Source: Centroscyllium fabricii
Lineage: Eukaryota
Length of the DNA: 64,000 nucleotides
Direction of reading: 5' to 3'
NCBI GenBank assembly: GCA_051313645.2
Contig: JBNRSN020000016.1
Location: 65,596,001 to 65,660,000, forward strand
Made by a program: the position numbers and the translations under genes. Positions 46,301-61,300 of this stretch are shown in pieces. Numbering within the stretch: the stretch's first letter is position 1; each line of letters opens with the position of its first letter. The notes beneath the pieces are model-generated. The model saw nothing but the letters and a program-made list of their open reading frames with translations. It was not told the DNA's origin and did not search any database.

Positions 46301-49300
46301 ATGGGTTCCTTGATGGGGGGCCCTTCAGAGAATGCCAAGAAATGCACAGAGGCTTGCAGTGAGCTTTATCCAAGGGAGATTCAAGCCTGGGGTGGCGGCA
46401 GGAGGGTATGAAGACAGGAATAGTGAAGAGTTGAGGTAGAGATTCGAGGGGAGAAATGAAAGGTGGTATAACTGGGTGACAGGAAGGGGAGGAGACGGGT
46501 CGGGATTGACCAAAAGGGGATAAAAGAAGAGGGAACAAAAGAGAGTAATGGGATTGAGTCTGGAATGGCAGCGAAAATTATAGAACAGGACTATTAGTAG
46601 CTAAAAAGACAAATCTGTACTGCTGGAAGAGCCTTTCTGCTGTTAATCTTTGGGTGAAAGGAATGCTACAAATGGCTGAATTTGAAATTGGTTTAGTAAT
46701 GTTTAATGGTCAGGCAAAAGCACCAATCAAGTGATCTTTTAGAGCAATACAGCCAGAATCACGGGAGATGGCATGAGCTAGTTGTTTCAGCAGAGCTAAA
46801 ACTGAGCCACGGTATAGTCTAGTCTTCACCCTTTCCAAGGAGCAAAAAGGGAATTTGAGAGCTTAAAGCTGAGAAGTGTTTGCAGGCTGGATATACTCCG
46901 CAGACTTTAACTGTGTGCATGTGCACACACACAATTGTGAAATGTCCAGGAAGGGTAAGGACAAATTTGTTTTATTTTCTGTATATAAGCCTGTAAACTG
47001 CTGATTAAAGCTTTTGCATTAGTGAATCGGGTGTCTGACAACTTTTCTATTTTGTAGACGGATGAATGACCCATCTATTGTCACTCCATGTTCCAGAGAT
47101 GACCGGGGTTATACGCCATTGCACGTAGCTGCTTTCTGTGGTAAGCACTATATTTGTGCTGTGATCAGACTTGATGGGTAACTTGTATCTTTCTTTAAAT
47201 CCTCAGATTTGAAATAAGTCTTAATATTTTAATTTAAACATTAAATTGTGTAGTGAACTACGTAAACAGCACATTGTTAATTCGGCACTGACATACTTTT
47301 GTTAAAAAAAAATAATTCTAAATAATAATTATTTATCCTCAAGGCCAAGCATCATTGATTGACGTGTTGGTGTCAAAAGGAGGTGCAGTTAATGCTACAG
47401 ACTATCATGGGTCCACCCCACTTCACCTATCCTGTCAGAAAGGGTATCAAAATGTGACCGTAAGCAAATCAGACCAAGAGTTTCAAGACATGCCTGAAAA
47501 CTGATTACAGTCTTTCTGCTTTTTGTTTTAAGTAAATGCAGTAAAAAAAACACATTCTGTTACTTCTTGTGCATTTCTTTTAAGCTTCTGAAAGGCAAAT
47601 TAATTGGCTATGAAGCTACTGTTTGGTATTTGTGTAATACACTGAATATACATAAGGGATAATGCCACATTTACAACAGGAAGCCATACTCAGGATATGT
47701 GGGTCGGAGAATTGGTGCTACAGTGTTGTAACCCACAGACGGGAGTAAGAAATTAACCATAGAATGTTTTTGGTTGAATGACTAATTTATATTGCATTTA
47801 AAAGTAAGAATACCACATTATTGATGACATCTTAAGTGCTCATTTTAATAAATTGATTTAAGTTGCAGACCGCTTTTAATCCTCTTTTATTATATAGTTG
47901 CTTCTTCTGGATTACAAGGCCAGCACTGAAGTTCAAGATAATAATGGCAATACTCCACTTCATTTGGCTTGCATGCATGGTCATGAAGATGTAAGTTTTA
48001 ATAAAAGTTGAATTCTATTATTGAATTTGTAGTTGATTTACATAAACATGGTTACAAACTCTACTCCAGGAAATGCACTCTGCTGTTTGCCTCCACTACA
48101 GCTCCCACTCCACAGCATTCCATAGTTAGCCCCATCTCCTCCTCTGTCCTCCCTCTTCTGCCACCCCCCCTGCCAGCCCTTCCCCCCCACCCCCCCCCCC
48201 CTCGCCAGCCCTTATCAGACTCTCTTCCTCCAAGTCCTACAGTTGGCTCCCTCAACCTTCCCATCTAGTTTTTGACCTTTCAATGATCTCTCCTTAGTTT
48301 AATGCTTAACAATATCAACAACAACAAAGATTGCATTTGTATAATACTTTTAACGTAGTAAAACATCCCAAAGCATTTCACAGAGGTGAAATCTAAAAAT
48401 GGGCACTGAACCAAAGGATGGTTGACCAAAAGCTTTGTCAAAACGGGTAGGTTTTAAGGAGGGCCTGAAAGCAGAAGGGGAAGTGGATTGGCGGAACGAT
48501 TTGGGAGGGAATTCCAGAGCCATGGGACCCACGCAGCTGAAGGCACAGCTACCAATAGTGGAGCAAAGAAACATAGAAACATAGAAGATAGGACCAGGAG
48601 TCGGCCATTTGGCCCCTCGAGCCTGCTCCGCCATTCAATGAGATCATGGCTGATCATCCAAATTCAGTACCCTGTTCCTGCCTTCTCCCCATATCCCTTG
48701 ATCCCTTTAGCCTTAAGAAATATATCCAGCTCCTTCTTGAATATATTTAATGAATTGGCCTCAACTGCCTTCTGTGGTAGAGAATTCCACAGGTTCACCA
48801 CTCTCTGGGTGAAGAAATTCCTCCTCATCTCTGTCCTAAATGGCTTACCCCTTACCCTTAGACTGTGATCCCTGGTTCTGGAGTCCCCTGCCATCGGGAA
48901 CATCCTTCCTGCATCTAGTCTGTCTGGCCCTGTTAGAATTTTATAAGTTTCAATGAGATCCCCTCTCATTCTTCTAAACTCCAGCGAGCATAAGCCCAAT
49001 CGACCCAATCTCTCCTCATACGTCATTCCTGCCATCCCAGGTATCAGCCTGGTGAATCTTCGCTGCACTCCCTCCATGGCAAGAACATCCCTCCTCTGAT
49101 AAGGCGACCAAAACTGCACCCAATACTCGAGGTGTGGTCTCACCAAGGCCCTGTACAACTGCAGCGAGACATCCTTGCTTCTGTACCAGGAAAGGCAGGG
49201 AGAGGCCAGAGTCAGGGGAACGAAGATTTGGTGAGGTGGGAGATGAGTCAGAAATGGCACATCAGGTTTGATCTATGTAGTGAATTGTGTTTTTTTTCAG

Positions 49301-52300
49301 TACAGGTCCTGATCTAAAACTTTGTCAAATACAGAATATAATTGATTTGTACCAGTGCCAAAATTACAGATTAACTGGTTTTAATGAACTCAGTGGCTAT
49401 AACAGGAAAATGGTGTTTGACTGAGAAGAAAGCAGCATCTGATTGATGGAAGCAGAGCTGATCTGCCAAAGTAAAAAGCATGAAACAAAATTGCTGTTTG
49501 ACCTCTGAATTTATTATGGATTTCTACTACATTGTTAATTGTTAGTGAGGTGTTTAAAAATGTAATGTCGCACCAATAAACCTCGGTATATCTGATGTCA
49601 ATGCAAGGCTTCCTCCCCACCCACCGCCTTATTTTCTCCTCTTGTCTCTTCTCCAGAAACTGCTGCCTCTTGCTGAGGTCGGTTGGTATGTTGCCCACGT
49701 GGCCACTATTCATCTATGAGCCCAGATAGTGATCAAAAGCCGGAATTCTGGCTGATGGCATTGAGTTTCATTTTTAATTGGCACTGTCCTGGCGGAGATC
49801 TAACGCAGCACAGACCAGGGATATGGAAATTTGCTGGCTTGTGTGATTGTCTGGCGCATAGCCATTAAAGAGCTACAGTGCTAACCCAGTGAGAAGAAGT
49901 GGGAAAGAGCATCGGAATGAAAAACAAATTCAGCAGACAAAATATATGTCTCCTTACTGGTCGTCTAAGTCGTGGTGCTGTACTTCGACCAAGTCCTTAG
50001 ATAGAGATAAAACCACACAAAAAGTCATAGAGTCATAGAGTCTTACAGCACAGAAAGAGGCCCTTCGGCCCATCACGTCTATGCCGGCCATCAAGCCCTG
50101 TCTACTCTAATCCCATTTTCCTGCATTTGGTCCGTAGCCTTGTATGCTATGGCACTTCAAGTGCTCATCTAAATGCTTCTTGAATGTTATGAGGGTTCCT
50201 GCCTCCTCCACCCTTTCAGGCAGTGAGTTCCAGATTCCAACCACCCTCTGGGTAAAAAAATTCTTCCTCAAATCCCCTCTAAACCTCCCGCCCCTTACCT
50301 TGAAACTATGTTCCCTTGTTATTGACCCCTCTACCAAGGGAAAAAGTTCCTTTCTATCTACCCTATCAGTGCCCCTCATAATTTTGTACATCTCAATCAG
50401 GTCCCCCCTCAGCCTTCTCTGCTCTTAGAAAACAACCCCAGCCTGTCCAGTCTTTCTTCATAGCTGAAGCGCTCCAGCCCAGGTAACTTCCTGGTGAATC
50501 TCCTCTGCACCCTCCCCAAGGCAATCACATCCTTCCTATAGTGTGGTGACCAGAACTGCACACAGTACTCCAGCTGTGGCCTTACCAGCGTTTTGTACAG
50601 CTCCATCATAACCTCTCTGCTCTTGCCTTCATTAGCTGAGGCATAGAATATAAGTATCCCATATGCCTTTTTAACCACCTTATCTACCTGTCCTGCTGCC
50701 TTCAGGGATCTATGTACATGCACACCAAGGTCCCTCTGATCCTCTGTCTTTCCTAGGTTCTTACCATTCATTGTGTATTCCCTTGCCTTGTTATTCCTTC
50801 CAAAATGCATCACTTCACACTTTCAGGGTTAAGTTCCATTTGCCACTGCTCTGCCCATCTGACCAACCCATCTATATCGGCCTGCAGACTGAGGCTTCCC
50901 TCCTCGCTATCTACTACCCCACCAAACATCAGCAAACTTACTGATCATACCCTTTACATTCATATCCAAATCATTAATATAGACTACAAACAGCAAGGGA
51001 CCCAGCACCAATCCCTGCGGTACCCCGCTGGACACAGGCTTCCAGTCACAAAAACAACCTTCGACCATCACCCTCTGCCTTCTGCCACTAAGCCAGTTTT
51101 GGATCCACTGTGCCAAGGTGCCCTGGATCCCATGGGCTCTTACCTTCTTGACCAGTCTCCTATGCGGGACTTTATCAAAAGCCTTACTGAAATCCAAGTA
51201 TACCACATCCACTGCACTACCCTTATCCACACGCCTAGTCACCCCCTTGAAAAATTCAATCAAGTTGGTCAGACATGATCTTCCCTTGACAAAGCCATGC
51301 TGACTATCCTTGATTAATCCTTGCCTCTCCAAGTGAATACTAATTCTATCCCTCAGAATTTTTTCCAATAACTCACTGGCCTGTAATTCCCTGGTTTATC
51401 CCTACTACCCTTCTTGAACAATGGTACCACGTTAGCTGTTCTCCAGTCCTCTGGCACATCCCCTGTGGCCACAGAGGATCTGAAAATTAGTGTCCGAGCC
51501 CCGACAATCTCCTCATTTGCCTCACACAGCAGCCTGGGATACATCTCGTCCGGGCCTGGGGATTTATCCACTTTTAAGCCTGCTAAAACCGTTAGTACCT
51601 CCTCCCGCTCGATGGTAATATGTTCAAGTGCAATCATTCACTAAAGGGAATCAAACCCAATAGTTGCATAGGCCAGTGTACATTTGGTCTGTTCCTGAAA
51701 TTAGCTTTTACTTCAATTTTATTAGGTACAAAATTATAATAAGAGCATAAATTTTTTAAGTGATTTGAAATGCTATTTAAGCAGCCATATTTGGGAAACT
51801 TTCTATTTTAATACTTTACTTTCTGCCCTCTCCCATTGTTCTCTTACATAATTGTTCTCTTACAACATCGTTATCTCCCTCTTTCTATACATGTCGAGGG
51901 TCAGGGTTTGAATCTGGCCCAGAAAGATAAATTGAAGGTCTCCTCTCTAAGAAAGAAGAGAAATATAGCAGGACATCCCAAAGCACTTTGCAGCCAGTGA
52001 AGTACTTTTGAAGTATGGTCACTGTTGTAATGTAGGAAACGCAGCAGCCAATTTGAGCACAGCAAGGTCCCACAAACAGCAATGAAATAACTGACCAGAT
52101 TATCTGTTTCAGGTGTTGGTACAGGTATAAATCTTGACTGGGGGATCTCCCTTGCTCTTCTTTGAATATATGTTGCCTGAAATGGGAAAATATTTAGTCT
52201 CTTTACCATACTGATGTCTCTTATTAACTAAATTTTTGGGAGAATCTACTTGCAGCTGATTTTTCAGAATGTTCTAACTGGTAAATAAATTCAGTAACAT

Positions 52301-55300
52301 ATTGCAGTGGAGCCTTCGTGCGGGTGCAGTACCTGCTAGTTGCACTTGCACTGCCCATAATCAGGTTTGCTTTTTTGCACTGAGAAATTGCAGTTAGCCC
52401 AGCTTGTCAGAGCTCCGTGCGAGCTTCATGGGCATCTGAAGGGCGTAATTAGTGCGAGATGGCTTTTGAGACCACCTGATTTGAGACCACCTGATTGGCA
52501 GGGAGCCAATCAGTGGAACCAATTCTCCGTTCAAAACTTCGACTGAGAAATCTGTGCAAGTTCTGAAAGGAGAGATTGCCCAAAAGACATCTAAACTCAA
52601 AAATAAAAATTTAAAAACACCACATTTTTTTAACATTACCCCAACTAACACAAATAACCTATTTTAAAGAAAAAATAAAAATTTACAGAATTTTTTTTCA
52701 ACTTCCAACAGGTCTAAAAAAATACTTACCTGTCTTTAAAGTTATCAACAATTAAAAACCTGAAAAAACAACAATTAAAATCAATAAAATACACACTTAC
52801 CAGATAAAAACGGATACTTACAACTGCTTTTTCCCAGCGTAGAATATCCTGGTCTTGGTCCGTAGAATTTTTTTTTTTAAAAGCCCGAATTACTGGACGC
52901 AACCCCTAGTTCGCTGCATCCTGCGCTGGACCTCGCAGGAACTCCAACCTCCCCGCTGGCCGGCACAGGAAAACCCGAAGCAGCGCAACCGGCTGCTTCC
53001 TGTGGGTTTAAACTCTGGTGCGCTCGCAGCAGAGCTTAGACCCGATATGGGCAGACTGCAATTTCTGGCCCAATAACTATGTTTTGGAAGCTGTAACACA
53101 TAATGTAACCATAATTTATTGGTACCTCCAGCACAAGGATCTTGTGATAAGGGAAATTAATTGACAGTCAGGAAAGTTTGGTGTGATTGATTTATAAGTT
53201 GGGCTGGATTTTGATGCTGGAGGCGTATAGGAGGCGGGTCTACAACTTTTGGGGTTGTAGTCCATCGAGTTGTGGCCAACCCACTCGGTTTTCACTTGAT
53301 TGACCTTGTTGAGATTGCTCAGCGGGCCAATTAAGGGCCACCCGACAACAGGTGATGTCACAGATTGACTTTTCATCTGTCAAGAGCTTTTGACAGATGA
53401 AATATCAGCGTTTGACAGCTCTTTGAAGCTGTCAAACACTGACAATCTGTACACAAAGTTAATTCCTTCCTCTCAGGCTGATTTAGAGATCTCTCCAGAA
53501 CAGAAAGCAGAATGCTGCAACTTTTGACAGCTCACGGCCATTCTGCTTTCTGTGCCGGTGAGATGAGGGACTCCGAAGACCTGAAGGAAGGAAGGCTGTA
53601 AAGGTAAGTAAAACTTCTTAAAACACTTTATACACACACCAAACCCACTTACCTCTGCACTCATGCACCCATCACTCACCTGAACACCGGACATCTCGAA
53701 CTCTCCAAGCCCTTCAGCTCAACGGTCCACCTCGCTAACTTGGCGTGGTTTGGAGCCGTTGGGAATCCCACACTTCAGGAATAAAAATAGGGATTAGGCT
53801 AAAAACTGCCTGTTAACTAACTGTTAACAGACAGTTAATTGGCAGTAATCCCCTTCCCGCCTCGGGGAGGCGGCTCCCAGCACAGGTCGGGTATCCACCT
53901 CCTGGGAAACTGGCATGGAGGTGGGTTGGGGGCGGGATGGATTTGTGCCCCCCGATTTTGCAATTTTTAACCCCACACACGCCTCCAATCCCGCCTCCAC
54001 GACTCAATGAAAATCCTGCCCATAGTGTTTGCTCTGTTGAGTACACTTTGCTTGGTCAGTTTTAAAATTTCCTGGTGAGGTGATCTTGGATAAATATTTA
54101 GATGGGATAAAAGTTACAAGCAAAGACTTAAATACGCAATATTCTTTTAGTGAAAATTAATATTGTTTTCTTTTCATTATTTGCAGTGTGTCAAAGCTCT
54201 GGTGTATTACCATTTAAATGCCTGTAAATTAAACGTGACAAATGACAAAGGTGATACACCGCTCCACATTGCAGCTCGATGGGGTTATGATGGTATCATT
54301 CAGGTTCTGCTGGAGAACGGCGCTAATAATGAAATTCAGAACAAGATGAAAGAAACACCTTTGCAATGTGCACTCAATTCTAAGGTAGTATAGGCTATAA
54401 GATGCTTATATTGTGAGATCACGTAATTTGTATGAACAAACCAATTTAGGAGGAGCAAAGATTATTAATATAGAAAGTAATGAATGGGAAATAGCTGAAT
54501 TTTATGTACGTTTCAATGTTGAAAATTAGGTTGCAGATTCCAACTACCTTATTATTAGTACTATAGTTATTTTGGTAAAATTGTGTTTTTGTGTCTCCAA
54601 ATTCAGTCAGCCCTTCTAAAGTTCTAAAATCACACTGGTTTGCCATTAGAAAGAAATACTCCAGTAATCACTTATATATTTTGGGCACAAAAATTGACAT
54701 GTATCTAATCTAATCTCATCTCAAAGATGAAGGGATGGGATGGAATGGTTTGTATGCATTGCCTATTTAAGATATTTCTGAAAAGTTGATTCTCAAACAC
54801 TTAAGTGGGTTTTAACTAAGAAACAACCTCACTTCTTCTCATCGGGTACCAGGTTGTCTTTCAGCAGTGTATTAATTGGGGACTACATACTCGTGCGTCC
54901 AAAATGTGGGCGGCACAGTGGATAGCACTGTTGTCTCACAGCACTGGAGACCCGGGTTCAAATCCAGCCTCGGGTACTATCTGTGTGGAGTTTGCACATT
55001 CTCCCCGTGTCTGCGTGGGTTTCCTCCGGGTGCTCCGGTTTCCTCCCACAGTCCAAAGATGTGCGGGTTAGGTTGATTGGCCAGGATAAATTGACCCTTA
55101 GTGTTAGGGGGATTGAATGTGTGGGGTTACGGGGATAGGGTGGGATATGTGTCGATGCAGGCTCGATAGGGAGCGAGGGATATGGGGACAAGGCAGGGGC
55201 GGGTTACTGGGTTTGGATGATCAGCCATGATCTCGTTGAATGGCGGAGCAGGCTCGAAGGGCCGAATGGCCTACTCCTGCTCCTAGTTTCTATGTTTCTA

Positions 55301-58300
55301 AATGCTAACTTTACCAATTCAGTAACTTAATGTTTTAGATTTCTGTGGGGATATGTGAAACTTTTCTCCCTCTGATTGAGTTCTCCTCACAAATTGGCAC
55401 ACTAGTTCAATTTGATCCTTAAAGTCTTGCTGTTGTAGTAAAGTCTCTTGATAAAATGAGGTGGCATGACAGTCATCTTGTCTGACAGATCTTTAAAATA
55501 GAATCTTTAAAATTAGGTAGATAACCAGGATGTGGTACCATGTGATGGAGAGATGGAGATTTGAATTTTGTGCTCTTTGCAATTCCCAATCTGCGGGATT
55601 GTGCCAAGAGGAGGCTTGGTGTGTCCCCATGGGCTGGGAAAATAGGGAGAGTTTTCATCACGTGCCTTGTAGTTCCTTGCTAAAGGCCCTGTCACACCTT
55701 GACGTTTTAGCTTGCGTATGCAAATTTGGCCGATACGCTGGTATACGTTGGACAAGTTATGGGTACGTTATGCATACGGTAAGAGCACGTTGGCGTACGC
55801 TGACCATAAGTTGTATACGTCGTTTAAGTCGTGATTTTTTGTGCATGCACAAAAAATCACGACGTATAAATGTAACTATTTATACGTTCATCATACGCTG
55901 AACATACGTTGTAGGCACGTTAGGCGATCGTTGACACACGTTAGTCATACGTCAAAATACGTCGAGATAATGCCTATTTTTCCCGGAACTTATGTCTAAC
56001 CTATGAGTAACGTGCTTTGAACTTATGTGTAGCGTATCTCCAACGCATATTGACGTATGTAGACGTATTTGACGTCTTCCGGACGACCACAGACCTTACT
56101 GAACGTGTTTCTAACTTACAGCTAACGTATAATGGCGTACTGGCAGCGTTTAGGGAATTTGGTATATAAAAAGGGGTTTCACAGGAGGAACCAGTCAGTG
56201 TTCCAGACTCCATGGTGAGCAGATGTCCATGTAATCCAAGAGATGGAGGATCCGGCAAGACGAGAATTACTACTAGCTGTCCTCCAACATCAACAAGCAC
56301 TCATCGATTTTACACTGTACCAGAGGCGTGCCAAAAGAGCCAAGAGAAGATTAGCTGAACGGAGGAGAAGGAACTGGGTGAGACCATGGATCGGGATGCG
56401 ACGGCAGTTTGGCATGTATGACCAGCTCATGGTGGAACTCCGTAACGAGGACCATGCATCCTTCACCAACTTCCTGCGTATGCCCCCAGCGATGTTCGAC
56501 GAGCTGCTAGCCAGAGTGGGTCCAAGGATAACCAAGCAGTACACCTTCTACAGGGATCCGCTTGAGCCTGGCATGAAGCTGGCACTGACTTTGCGTCACC
56601 TTGCCTCTGGAAACAAGTATGCCTCGATGAAGTTCGCATGGAGGGTCCCTCACAACACCCAGTCCATAGTGGTCAGAGAAGTCTGTCAAGCCATTATTGA
56701 CGAATACGTGGATGAGGTGATGGTTTGCCCAAGTACTCCTGATGGTTGGCGCGCCATAGCTGACAAGTTCTTCCAACGATGGAACTTTCCCCATACATGT
56801 GGGGCACTTGACGGGAAGCACGTGGCCTGCCGCTGTCCTCCAAAGACTGGGTCACAGTACTACAATTACAAAGGATTCTACTCCATTGTTCTGATGGCGC
56901 TTGTGGATGCTGACTACAAATTTATTTGGGCAGATGTCGGCGGTACTGGATCTGCATCAGATGCGCAGATATACAATGACTCTGAGCTGAAGGAATGCGC
57001 TGAAGACGGTACCCTTGGTTTCACTGACCCTGAGCCTCTTCCCTACGACAACCAGGACGTGCCTTACTTCGTTATCGGTGACGATGCCTTCGCCTTACGA
57101 CCAACCATGATGAAGCCATTCAGCCTCCGTGGTCTGACGAATGAAGAACGCATCTTCAACTACAGGCTTAGCCGAGCAAGAAGGGTAGTAGAAAATGCAT
57201 TCGGCATCCTGGCTAACAGATTCCAGGTTCTGCTAAGTACCATGCAGCATCACCCCTCCACTGTCAAGCTCATTGTCAAAGCATGCTTGATCCTGCACAA
57301 CCTCATGAGGACCAGGTAATTCATGTTTACATAGCATATATTATACAGTATACAATGAAATTTAACTTTTAGCCTATGCTTATAAACATTATATGATTTA
57401 CCTTAAATTTTACATGTATCATTATATTACTTTTTAATGTACAGCGCATTAGAATATATGTTTTCATTATAGGTGCGCTTTATAAGTAAATAAAATCAAA
57501 TTCAAATTCCAGGTACCCAGGACTACAGAACCAGCAGCTTGACCAGGCAGAAAATGAGAACCGTGACCTTGTTCCAGGAGCATGGCGAAAGGGACATCAG
57601 TTGGAGGATACACAGACAGCTGCTGGCCCCAACACTGCCTCCAAGGACGGAAGGAAACAGAGGAATCTCCTCAAGCACTGGGTTAACTCCACAGCTGGCG
57701 CAGTTCCGTGGCAAGATAGGATGATTTAGATATTTGTATTACAGCATTGTTCAGGCAATAAAGAGACTTTCCTCCTGAAATGAACATCTTAAAGCCTTTT
57801 TTTCAATTATCCACTTTTCAATATACATGTACATTATATTATTATACCTTTTTCAAAGTGATTGAATTTATTATTGTTAATTATTGTTTATGATTTAAAT
57901 ATTAAAACAATAAAATCAGCAAACATCAAGAGTTTGCTCAACTTTTATTAAATGTGTAGTGGTATGATTTGAATCGTCCAATGGCAGCCTTTGAATAGTC
58001 TACACCACGTGATCGTCGGCGATACGCTGCCGCGCGCTATGCATACGTTAGACTATCGTTGGGCATAAGTTGTGAACGCCGACAATACGCTAAGCATTCG
58101 TTGGTATAAGTTGTTGTAAAATTATCGATACGCTCTATGTACGTTACTAATACGTTATGCATACGTCCAATACGTTATGAATACGCTACTACACAACAAA
58201 AATTGAACAGTGTCAAAAGTTCAGCGTTTTAGCCTCATTTGCATAGGCTGGCTAAAACGTCTAGGTGTGACAGGGCCTTTAGAGTGGAATTGGTGGTGGC

Positions 58301-61300
58301 AGATTGTCAGGAATACACGCTTGGCCACAGGATGTGTGCTGCTTCGGAGAGGTTATAAACACAAGGCGAGAATTGAAGGCAACATCCCTGAAATGCAAAG
58401 ATAAAAATGGTCAAATTTAAAAGAAGAAAGAAAATTAGGTGAATGGCTTGGAGGAACATAATGCAATATTGTGTGGCTGATACTTGTTCATTTTTTGACT
58501 TTTTGTGCTGTAAAATATTTTAACCTAAGCATTTATATCTACATACTAAATGAAGCAGTATTGTTAGCTGTTGATAAACTTTTGTGTAACAAAGATGTTC
58601 TCTACCCTTACAGATATTAGATTTGCTGGAAGTTACCTCCATTGGTAATGACAGACGACAGAGCATGCCAGAGGTAACTATCGTTCTCAAGTTGTCTATC
58701 TTTTTAACTTTTAAGAAAAAAAGCAAGTTTAAAGCAATTGAATATATCTTGTGGGCTAGAACATATAAAAACATATATCCACACAAATATATATATTTTA
58801 TCCTCTTTAGTTATCGTGCTTGCATTACCATTTTCTAAAGCCTTCAGTTTAAATTTCGTATCAGATTTTAGTAACTTTACAAATTATATTATTGAGTAAC
58901 TTATGCTAACTTGGTCATTGTTTTCTATAGTCTGTTGGCAGATCTCCCCAACCTTCCACTGACACTGGTAGTCAGATGTCATCTATTTCGACAATATCCT
59001 CTGTATCAGTTGCGATGAGGCATGACGAAGACAAAGGCAAATACAAAGAGGTGAAAGCTGTTTTATCACATCATTGCTGACAATTTTTCCACATATAATT
59101 TGACGTCTCTTCAGCCACCAAATCTAAAGGTCTGCTAAACAACGATCACTGCCTTGTTTTAGCAGCAAATAGGCCATATGAGAGTGAATGCTATTTTCCT
59201 TATATTTGCAAAGGAAGCAAGATGTATAATGGAGAATAATGGAATACCAAGTTTATTTGGAAATGTTCCACACAGGATTCTGAACTAATTATTCCACTGC
59301 CCTAACATGTAACCAATTTGTATTCTGCACAAATGAAATTGAATTGTTGTAAAAGTGATCAATAATCTAACAATTTGATATCTCATCTGAGAAATATTTT
59401 TATTGCCAATGATACTACCTTGTTTTCACTTTATGCTGCTATCTATTATTTTTTTAAGCCAAAACTATTTAAATTCATGGGTTTTGTTATTTCCTCTTTC
59501 CTTCATTGTATTGGATTTCTGCATCATTTGCACAAAATGTAATTTTAAAAATCTCAAATACATTGAGCAAATGCTTTACACTTGTTCTCAACATTGCAAT
59601 GTGAAGGAATAATGAGGTGAGTATTAAAGTACAGGTTGAACACCGTTAATTCGGCAGGGTCGGGACCAGCACCCTGCCGAATTGTTGAAAACGCTGAATG
59701 ATTAAAGCTTCGGCAGGGCATGCACAGACCATTCAAAATGGCCGCCGCGAAATTTAAAATGGTCTGTGCATGCACTCGCCGGTACCTGGAAGGTGGCTTT
59801 CGGCCCAAGGGTCGGGTGGAACTCAAGACGCACTCGATTCTGCTGCCCATGGTGGATCAAGGAGCGGGCTGCAAGGCTCCAGCGGGCCTGAGGCCCAATG
59901 CGCGGCTCAAGCCCAGCTCACGTGACGCCACCGCCTGCCAGCTTTGGAACGCGGTGACGTCAGCACGCAGCCAGGCAGGAGCCTCCGGCAGCGGTGCACT
60001 TATTAACTGAGCTATTAATGTGTCTGGGTTAATTTTTTTTTGATTCTTCATAATTCTAAGGACTGTTAGGTGAAAGGGAAGCCCAGCCCTGACGGTGGCC
60101 ATTTTGAATGGTCTGCGCATGCACCGGGCAGTCGGGGAAATCTATGCTGGGCGACTGAAGCTGCCGGTTTTTCGGGTAAAGGATTAACGGTGCTCAACCT
60201 GTATTTTACAAGTCTGTAATGATTCCATTAGAGTAAAATGAATTCGTTTTATTTACTATAATTCTGCTTCTTGGTCAGGTGTGTCATAGTTTTTGGGGAA
60301 CGGGACAGGGGTAGGAAGGGGAGTGGAGCATGATTCCACTTTAGGTAGTTTGCTATCCACAAGTCACTAAGCCAGTCACTCGCAGAAATATTTATCCTAT
60401 CGCTTTGTTTCCTAACCACCCCATGAATATATTTGCTATGTATGCAGCATCGCAGGTCAGCAAAGCAAATGAAAATGCTATCAAAACACAGATTTAATTC
60501 TAGGGTTATAGAATTCAAAAGTAGTGAAGCTATGTTAAAGTTGTCTAGGACCCTGGTCAGGTCATACTTGGAGTACTGTACACAGTTCTGGTCTCCAAAC
60601 CATAACAAAGACATAGAAGCACTGGAGAAAATGCAAAAAAGATTTACAAGGATGGTACCAGAATGGGGAGATTATAGCTATTGGGAAAGATTGAACTGGT
60701 ATGGGCTTTTTTTCTTTAGAAAAGAGAAGACCTGGAAGTGACCTGATAGAGGTCTTTTAAAATTATGAATGGGTTGGACAGGGTGAATGTAGAGAAAATG
60801 TTTCCACTTGTGGGAGAATCCAAAACTAGGGGGTGTAAATATAAGATAGTTACTAATAAATCAAACAGGGAAATGAGGAGAAATGTCTTTACTCGGAGAG
60901 TGGTTAGAATGTGGAACTCCCTACCACAGGAAGTGGTTGAGGCAAATAGCTTGGATGCTTTGAAAAGGAAACTAGACGAGTACATGAGAGAAAAGTGAAT
61001 AGAAAGATATGCTGAAAGGCTGAGATGAGGTAGATGGAATGGGAGGAGACTCGTGTGGAGTATAAACACCAGTACAGACCTGTTGGGCCAAATGGCCTGT
61101 TTCTGGCTGTATATTCTATGTAATTCTGTACATATATAAGTAAGTAAACATTTCTGGTTTTAATGGAGGTATGTTTTCTTCCCATTATATCATTTCAACT
61201 GCTTTTCATTTCTCTCCAAGGACAGTGACATTTAAAAAATAAATAAATCTTAAATTGGTGCTAAATATCAAATAAGAACATAAGAACATAAGAAATAGGA

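Follow-up and report, generated by a model that had tools for sequence, protein, structure and literature searches.

Results

The Harbinger element and its interrupted transposase gene

The window analysed in this study is a stretch of 64,000 nucleotides from the genome of Centroscyllium fabricii, and it contains a DNA transposon with the features collected in Table 1. This element is a PIF/Harbinger transposon with a DDE_Tnp_4 transposase, terminal inverted repeats and a 3-bp TWA duplication. The flanks of the window copy were TAA / TTA, and identical 3-bp flanks were found in 18 of 25 family copies having both ends, 15 of these being TAA or TTA. Within 55684-58278 no open frame longer than 114 aa was found besides the transposase, and thus no second gene (Myb/SANT/MADF), which makes the element a solo-transposase form; yet more than 2,000 young copies are present in the genome. 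The copies that carry the insert described below number about 2,200 in the 7.2 Gb. Forty matches that were scored were 99-100% identical, and 29 other copies showed 4-43 substitutions over 2.2-2.6 kb.

Table 1. Features of the Harbinger element and of the insert in its transposase gene (window coordinates).
Feature	Position	Strand	Basis
PIF/Harbinger DNA transposon, transposase-only form	55684-58278	+	2,595 bp; inverted ends and breakpoints common to genomic copies
Left terminal inverted repeat, AGGCCCTGTCACACCT	55684-55699	+	16 bp
Transposase exon 1, holding the DDE_Tnp_4 domain	56243-57315	+	Open frame and Pfam
Left CCAGGTA copy, giving the putative donor AG/GTA	57312-57318	+	Sequence
Likely phase-2 GT-AG intron, 197 nt	57316-57512	+	Sequence; joint 57311 to 57509 (cut +4) in runs of relatives
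AT-rich 5' part of the insert, presumably the 3' UTR of a 5'-truncated retroposon	57319-57437	+	Sequence
L2-type two-arm stem-loop motif, sense	57438-57485	+	Motif and covariance-model comparison
Two TCAAAT units, presumed short-repeat tail, one base 5' of the right repeat	57496-57507	+	Sequence; translation NSNS again at the start of P0197
Right CCAGGTA copy, giving the putative acceptor CAG/G	57509-57515	+	Sequence
Transposase exon 2, with the conserved C-terminus of 71 aa and the stop codon	57513-57729	+	Homologs
Right terminal inverted repeat	58263-58278	-	16 bp

The named proteins nearest to the transposase were HARBI1-like, and the Pfam domain DDE_Tnp_4 (PF13359) was matched over its full length at residues 189-353 (E 1.5e-30). 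The gene is interrupted by an insert of 22.8% G+C that begins with GT, ends with AG and lies in phase 2. A prior reading of the sequence without database searches (hereafter the sequence-only reading) had placed a perfect CCAGGTA repeat around this insert, the left copy supplying a GT donor and the right copy an AG acceptor, and had stated that excision of 197 nt extends the protein from 358 to 429 aa; the positions were confirmed, and so was the extension by translation. The seven AGs upstream within the insert would give proteins of 359-369 aa, so that the full protein is restored by the distal AG only. Judged by its GT...AG ends and by the conserved protein that its removal restores, the insert has the form of a U2 intron. 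Since the domain lies within residues 189-353, the 358-aa form keeps the D190, D280/281 and E317 motifs, as the same reading had claimed for the short unspliced form, and unspliced RNA would encode a putative protein of 358 aa with these DDE motifs.

From comparison with homologs, exon 2 is the normal C-terminus of the transposase family, its G-[VI]-WQ motif being kept in 85 of 95 homologs with a long tail. The dN/dS of exon 2 was 0.43, 0.30 and 0.25 against the uninterrupted relatives L031, L068 and L032, respectively, values that partly predate the gain. Among the genomic copies, the shared substitutions in exon 2 were 9 synonymous and 15 non-synonymous, which is a weak signal of selection.

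An L2-type tail motif at the 3' end of the insert

The 3' part of the insert was compared with the two-arm motif TGTA[AC]AGCGC ... GCGCTATATAA, which we take to be an L2-type tail. This motif, named after the insert had been seen, had 5,850 matches in the genome, whereas its reversed control had none. All 30 matches examined lay at the ends of interspersed repeats with short simple repeats next to them, and most of these tails shared up to 400 bp of upstream sequence, which is probably SINE-like. Three matches of a second type were found downstream of decayed LINE coding sequence; upstream of one second-type tail (L169) there were two RVT_1 fragments, whose E values of 0.005 and 0.002 do not reach the curated cut-off.

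In the insert, the motif reads in sense, with 2 mismatches in 21. A match with 2 or fewer mismatches occurred in 0 of 5,000 dinucleotide shuffles (one shuffle had 3), and 7 introns of related transposases, used as a control, had 7-10 mismatches. With a covariance model built from 26 genomic tails without the insert, the insert ranked second in the window at 17 bits (E 0.22 per 64 kb), above all 15 control loci (best 12.8 bits), and the top match was a tail-like stretch at 48323-48394. The hairpin by itself was marginal (z -1.76 and -2.10), but its letters agree with the tail motif far better than chance would allow. Thus, by the motif comparison, the 3' end of the insert has an L2-type stem-loop motif that reads in sense and directly precedes the right repeat. 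This result agrees with the LINE-like 3' stem-loop tail of the sequence-only reading. The tail that follows consists of two TCAAAT units alone, which are kept in P0197 and decayed in the 82%-alike variant described below. The stretches at 48323-48394 and 51950-52004, both on the minus strand, are L2-type tails of ordinary retroposon copies.

A closer tail pattern that would mark the donor element had no match in this genome, and the AT-rich 5' part of the insert had no match elsewhere. As the donor was not found, the homology to a retroposon rests on about 50 bases; the absence of a donor in this genome fits an origin in another host. The Rfam search of the insert gave chance matches only (E 1.2 or worse). 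The CR1-like tails of the window were rejected as a match, being of another type unlike the insert, and a DNA-transposon (MITE) origin was rejected because the ends of the insert, compared by eye, share AATT only. Two single motif matches in viral contigs look like chance.

Fixation of the insert and its variants in this genome

The left junction of the insert had 2,274 exact matches in the genome, the right junction 2,196 and an inner 21-mer 1,843, whereas the exact empty junction had none, which answers for this genome the comparison of empty and filled copies that had been proposed from the sequence. The sole empty site found with a degenerate pattern (L114) was rejected as a pre-insertion allele, since it belongs to a distant Harbinger. 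L115-L117 are mutated copies of the family. In this genome, the listed places of the 21-mer pair with Harbinger junctions, and the two unpaired ones that were fetched were Harbinger copies, so that the insert was not found outside Harbinger.

In the 53 loci aligned, GT and AG were kept without exception and both repeats in 49, three of the other four having been fetched because they were changed. Among 20 odd-looking copies, a 91-bp deletion removing the stem-loop was common to 6 and a 14-bp deletion to 2; these copies were chosen for their look, and the deletion counts are therefore no frequencies. Both deletions lie inside the intron and spare its two ends. The 6 copies with the longer deletion (L119, L121, L128, L130, L136 and L137) form a subfamily with a 106-nt intron, in which window positions 57389-57479 were lost between short repeats. 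A joint of this intron size was present in the public run X3.

Probable splicing of the insert

A joint skipping 197 bases with GT..AG was present in all four public runs guessed to be RNA (3 studies of other organisms, seen as contigs), and two of the four runs showed the unspliced form beside the joined form. In X16, the exon contigs with depths of 49.5 and 55.4 split into a joined path of 33.2 and an intron path of 20.9, and in X15 the joined path had a depth of 35.6 and the intron path 25.4; these joints stand in contigs, with a shorter side of just 23 letters, and depth is a poor measure. The paths in X15 and X16 look like partial splicing. The 197-base joint was absent from the contigs of X1 and X3. 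In X11, a run whose kind is unstated and which is probably DNA, a joined contig about 90% alike was found beside a filled contig 97% alike, which means that intron-less sisters exist, and the joined contigs of X17 and X18 (about 90%) may be such sisters. The search for joined reads suggested by the sequence-only reading therefore gave the exact joint in all four runs guessed to be RNA, in contigs of relatives and with one probable DNA run joined too. Going by these other organisms, removal of the insert from RNA is likely.

In the predicted stem, the cryptic AG at 57443 is paired in full and the one at 57471 by half, and on this model the stem could aid the weak distal acceptor; the stem-less subfamily with the 91-bp deletion was also amplified. 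Inefficient splicing with a truncated product, as foreseen from the sequence, is plausible.

Relatives of the transposase and the gain of the intron

Among 83 related DNA loci, 67 were uninterrupted at the site, and in the remaining 16 the site was not located by the motif search; the pattern scan covered the best 80 of 434 relatives, a selection that favours uninterrupted genes. AGGT stood at the site in 8 of 48 clean cases. The locus L031, which is 86-88% alike in DNA, has an empty site with a single ATC AGG TAC. Because the relatives are mostly uninterrupted at the site, the intron represents a gain; by the outgroups, which are open in the tree, and by the empty AGGT site in L031, it is newly gained. 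The gain at an AG/GT proto-splice site, read earlier from the window, was thus borne out, and so much of the proposed "de novo intron inside a transposon" stands. Its newness to this copy or host does not, as the insert is fixed in the family and present in relatives from other hosts.

These relatives are 82-97% alike. Six proteins end at the Arg where the unspliced window gene stops: P0132 of a hagfish (95%), P0127 of a shrimp (88%), P0013 (82%) and, in the identity range of 77-79%, P0014 (78%) and P0006 (79%) together with P0137 from the cluster of P0006. P0006, P0137, P0013 and P0014 were compared as proteins alone, and their stop may reflect an intron, a parallel intron or a nonsense codon. 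P0197 starts with MNSNSR and continues with an exon 2 identical to that of the shrimp P0010 at 70 of 71 residues. NSNSR is what the window intron tail reads in that frame, which indicates that the same intron, tail included, is present in the shrimp-type lineage.

In a tree of 32 rows, the rows that stop at this Arg all fell into one clade (98/94) with uninterrupted outgroups. This clade also contains the open rows L031, P0191, P0008 and P0031, so that two changes are needed, and a single origin of the stopping rows was not rejected (p-AU 0.215). A 62-row tree in quick mode needed three changes. Since the closer relatives L031 and P0191 are open while P0006/P0137 and P0014 stop, the two to three changes mean that a loss, a gain in parallel or a nonsense mutation is also involved.

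Transposases 88-95% identical to that of the window (P0003, P0127, P0128, P0130, P0132 and P0133) occur in a shrimp (Palaemon), a snail (Littorina) and two hagfish. Such identity across a vertebrate, hagfish and crustaceans points to horizontal transfer, and the transposase has likely moved through a wide transfer network among marine animals. No relatives were found in viral contigs. In related Harbinger transposases, other introns occur near residues 103, 148 and 327 (L049/L050, L069, L073, L081, L084, L100 and L102), which suggests that introns were gained repeatedly in this family.

The weight of the 7-bp repeat

The CCAGGTA repeat could not be extended on either side. At 7 distinct introns elsewhere in related transposases, the junction repeats were 1-5 bp, with L049 and L050 counted once and with L056, L087 and L101 left out for want of a clear intron. 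Whatever intron stands here must have AG and GT, C at -3 and A at +3 are the commonest consensus bases, and only the C at -4 is free. The repeat is therefore only modestly beyond chance, and from general splice-site frequencies we estimate the chance of a 7-bp match at about 0.05-0.12. Repeats of 5 bp or more are reported to flank 26% of conserved Drosophila introns (PMC3443670). The repeat alone is therefore weak evidence, and the case rests on the tail abutting its right copy.

A variant adds to this point. In one contig of X18, the intron is 82% alike, with 39 differences in 218, and position 57313 shows C>A; at the loose end of this contig the same C>A stands in the right copy, so that both copies read CAAGGTA and the acceptor is an unusual AAG. 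It is a single contig of depth 5, and two changes are needed under any single-origin history. In another contig, the loose end at 57318 leads straight into exon 2 of this variant. A duplication would leave just such an AAG acceptor, with the letters of the exon end.

Discussion

In this study, an insert with the form of an intron was found in the transposase gene of a young Harbinger family. From 5' to 3' it consists of an AT-rich body, an L2-type stem-loop and a short repeat tail, and a copy of the 7-bp repeat stands on either side. We hold it to be probable, though well short of certain, that the insert is a spliceosomal intron which arose when a 5'-truncated L2-type retroposon inserted in sense into AG/GT, and that a likely duplication of 7 bp at the target site furnished donor and acceptor alike. 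The donor would have been an L2 LINE or an L2-dependent SINE that borrows the tail, entering the Arg-Tyr codons of the Harbinger transposase by target-primed reverse transcription; reverse transcription would have halted after about 190 bases, and 7 bp would have been duplicated. The spliceosome would then take the two copies of the repeat as donor and acceptor, and the element may have survived since splicing would restore the coding sequence exactly. The insertion presumably took place in an earlier host, probably a marine invertebrate, and later horizontal transfer between animal groups may have been followed by amplification in this genome.

Several features of L2 elements are consistent with this proposal. 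The oyster element Cgi_CORE_1 is reported to have the same tail, which its authors match to L2-52_DR, and the snail elements Pan_2 and Pan_3 to carry it followed by (CAAT)n or (CATT)n (PMC4758252). L2 proteins are described as recognising such stem-loops (PMC4176376), and insertions of ZfL2-2 are reported to lack the 5' part in most cases and to have produced a duplication at 20 of 25 places (PMC2666801). The insert resembles these L2 LINE and SINE tails, as far as those sources describe them, in its two-arm stem-loop and in its presumed tandem-repeat tail, 5' truncation and short duplication, but it is without a coding part or a family match, and its loop and tail unit differ from those of the elements of this genome.

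Alternatively, the intron could be an older one at a proto-splice site, with a repeat made up of splice consensus and Arg-Tyr codons, inside which a retroposon tail landed later. Proteins of 77-79% identity end at this very Arg, ordinary introns occur at other places in related transposases, and four of the seven repeat bases are obligatory while two more are the commonest consensus, which together with the chance estimate above would leave room for such a history; moreover, Daphnia introns have often been gained in parallel at a single position (PMC4202315). However, a single base separates the tail from the right repeat, and no native pyrimidine tract remains there, so that a later insertion would need to have struck no more than a few bases from the old acceptor; the predominance of uninterrupted loci (among the best relatives) also argues against an old intron. 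This history is therefore unlikely.

Retroposon DNA or cDNA might also have been captured during the repair of a double-strand break, the repeat being a filled-in staggered break such as a lesion made by the transposase. Short direct repeats are reported to flank 43% of gained Daphnia introns (PMC3443670), and neither a donor nor a full element was found. The captured piece, however, ends exactly at the natural 3' end of a retroposon, with stem-loop, repeat tail and duplication, which is the geometry of target-primed insertion, and we regard break repair as a rather improbable source. It is very improbable that the insert is an unspliced inactivating insertion in a family mobilised in trans, the joined contigs being intron-less sisters: the joined sister in the probable DNA run X11, the need of an element without a second gene for help in trans anyway (as described in PMC8437027) and the weak selection on exon 2 agree with this, but in X15 and X16 a joined and an unjoined path run between one and the same pair of exon contigs, this genome yielded no empty copy of the family, shrimp-type and hagfish relatives have an open, conserved exon 2, and the shared deletions spare both intron ends.

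A further suggestion, which goes beyond the insertion of a retroposon into AG/GT and which we consider improbable as a whole, is that the LINE tail serves as a regulatory intron carried across animal phyla. Its stem-loop would mask cryptic acceptors and lead to partial, host-dependent splicing, thereby switching between the 429-aa transposase and a 358-aa DDE protein that would dampen transposition, and the CAAGGTA lineage would go back to a further insertion, in which this retroposon independently hit the same codon again.

The insertion of a transposon into AGGT with a target-site duplication is a proposed route of intron gain (PMC3443670; PMC11282704). The source of most gained introns is not traceable, and this route stands so far on indirect evidence, being listed by Yenerall and Zhou in 2012 as indirectly supported only (PMC3443670). 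As outlined in that source, the route agrees with the history proposed for our case in the proto-splice insertion, in the duplicated AG/GT giving both splice sites and in the exact restoration of the coding sequence; our case differs in that the insert keeps an L2-type tail and that the recipient is itself a transposon gene. The mechanism has thus been proposed already, and the present case is a well-preserved instance inside a transposon that likely moves horizontally. In the literature searched, with Repbase, Dfam and subscription journals outside its scope, no report of a LINE-born intron in a transposase was found. On sequence grounds, introns in Harbinger transposases as such are not unusual. 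Exons are mentioned for the Harbinger partner gene as well (PMC13668399).

Introner families that co-opt both splice sites have been described (Gozashti et al. 2022, PMC9860276; 2025, PMC12130899), and non-LTR retrotransposons account for 5% of the classified families (PMC12130899; PMC9860276). In what these sources describe, introners resemble the present insert, as we read it, in their derivation from transposons, the co-option of splice sites and an aquatic setting with horizontal transfer. However, introner families make introns at many sites, whereas here one insertion was multiplied passively by Harbinger, and as the insert was seen in this genome only inside Harbinger, it does not qualify there as an introner. 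Horizontal transfer is known for other marine Harbingers (PMC8437027). Likened by description alone, Harbinger-Snek shares with our element its marine setting, patchy hosts, a vertebrate burst and solo-transposase variants, but the accessible part of that source describes no such intron (PMC8437027).

The source signature, the presumed duplication, the empty ancestral site and the descendant versions (82-100% alike) have survived because the transposon copied them thousands of times, likely between hosts. The birth and early tuning of an intron thereby become directly testable, since better splice sites, deletions within the intron and its possible loss can be arranged along a tree. The case also illustrates a route by which vertebrate genomes, in which intron gain is reportedly rare (PMC12130899), may acquire a new intron.

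Additional observations

The window contains a host-gene exon with ankyrin repeats at 54187-54318 on the plus strand, and AG/GT-bounded stretches lie near 58614-58674 and from 58931. The Harbinger appears to sit in sense within an intron of this ankyrin-repeat gene, where its splice sites could disturb the host transcript. Three copies of the family (L002, L012 and L016) are broken near the 3' end by other insertions that look LTR-like by eye. Runs X15 and X16, from two organisms, contain a form with a 980-bp internal deletion (window 56259-57240), and X17 and X18, from two other organisms, show very deep coverage of the Harbinger ends; together, these suggest abundant non-autonomous derivatives. 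Pieces of Harbinger transposases in two bacterial MAG records (L111-L113) are probably eukaryotic contamination. The distant Harbinger L114, the second in this genome, is intact and intron-less. Behind it, an open frame of at least 245 aa that matches no Pfam family lies on the other strand and is perhaps its partner gene.
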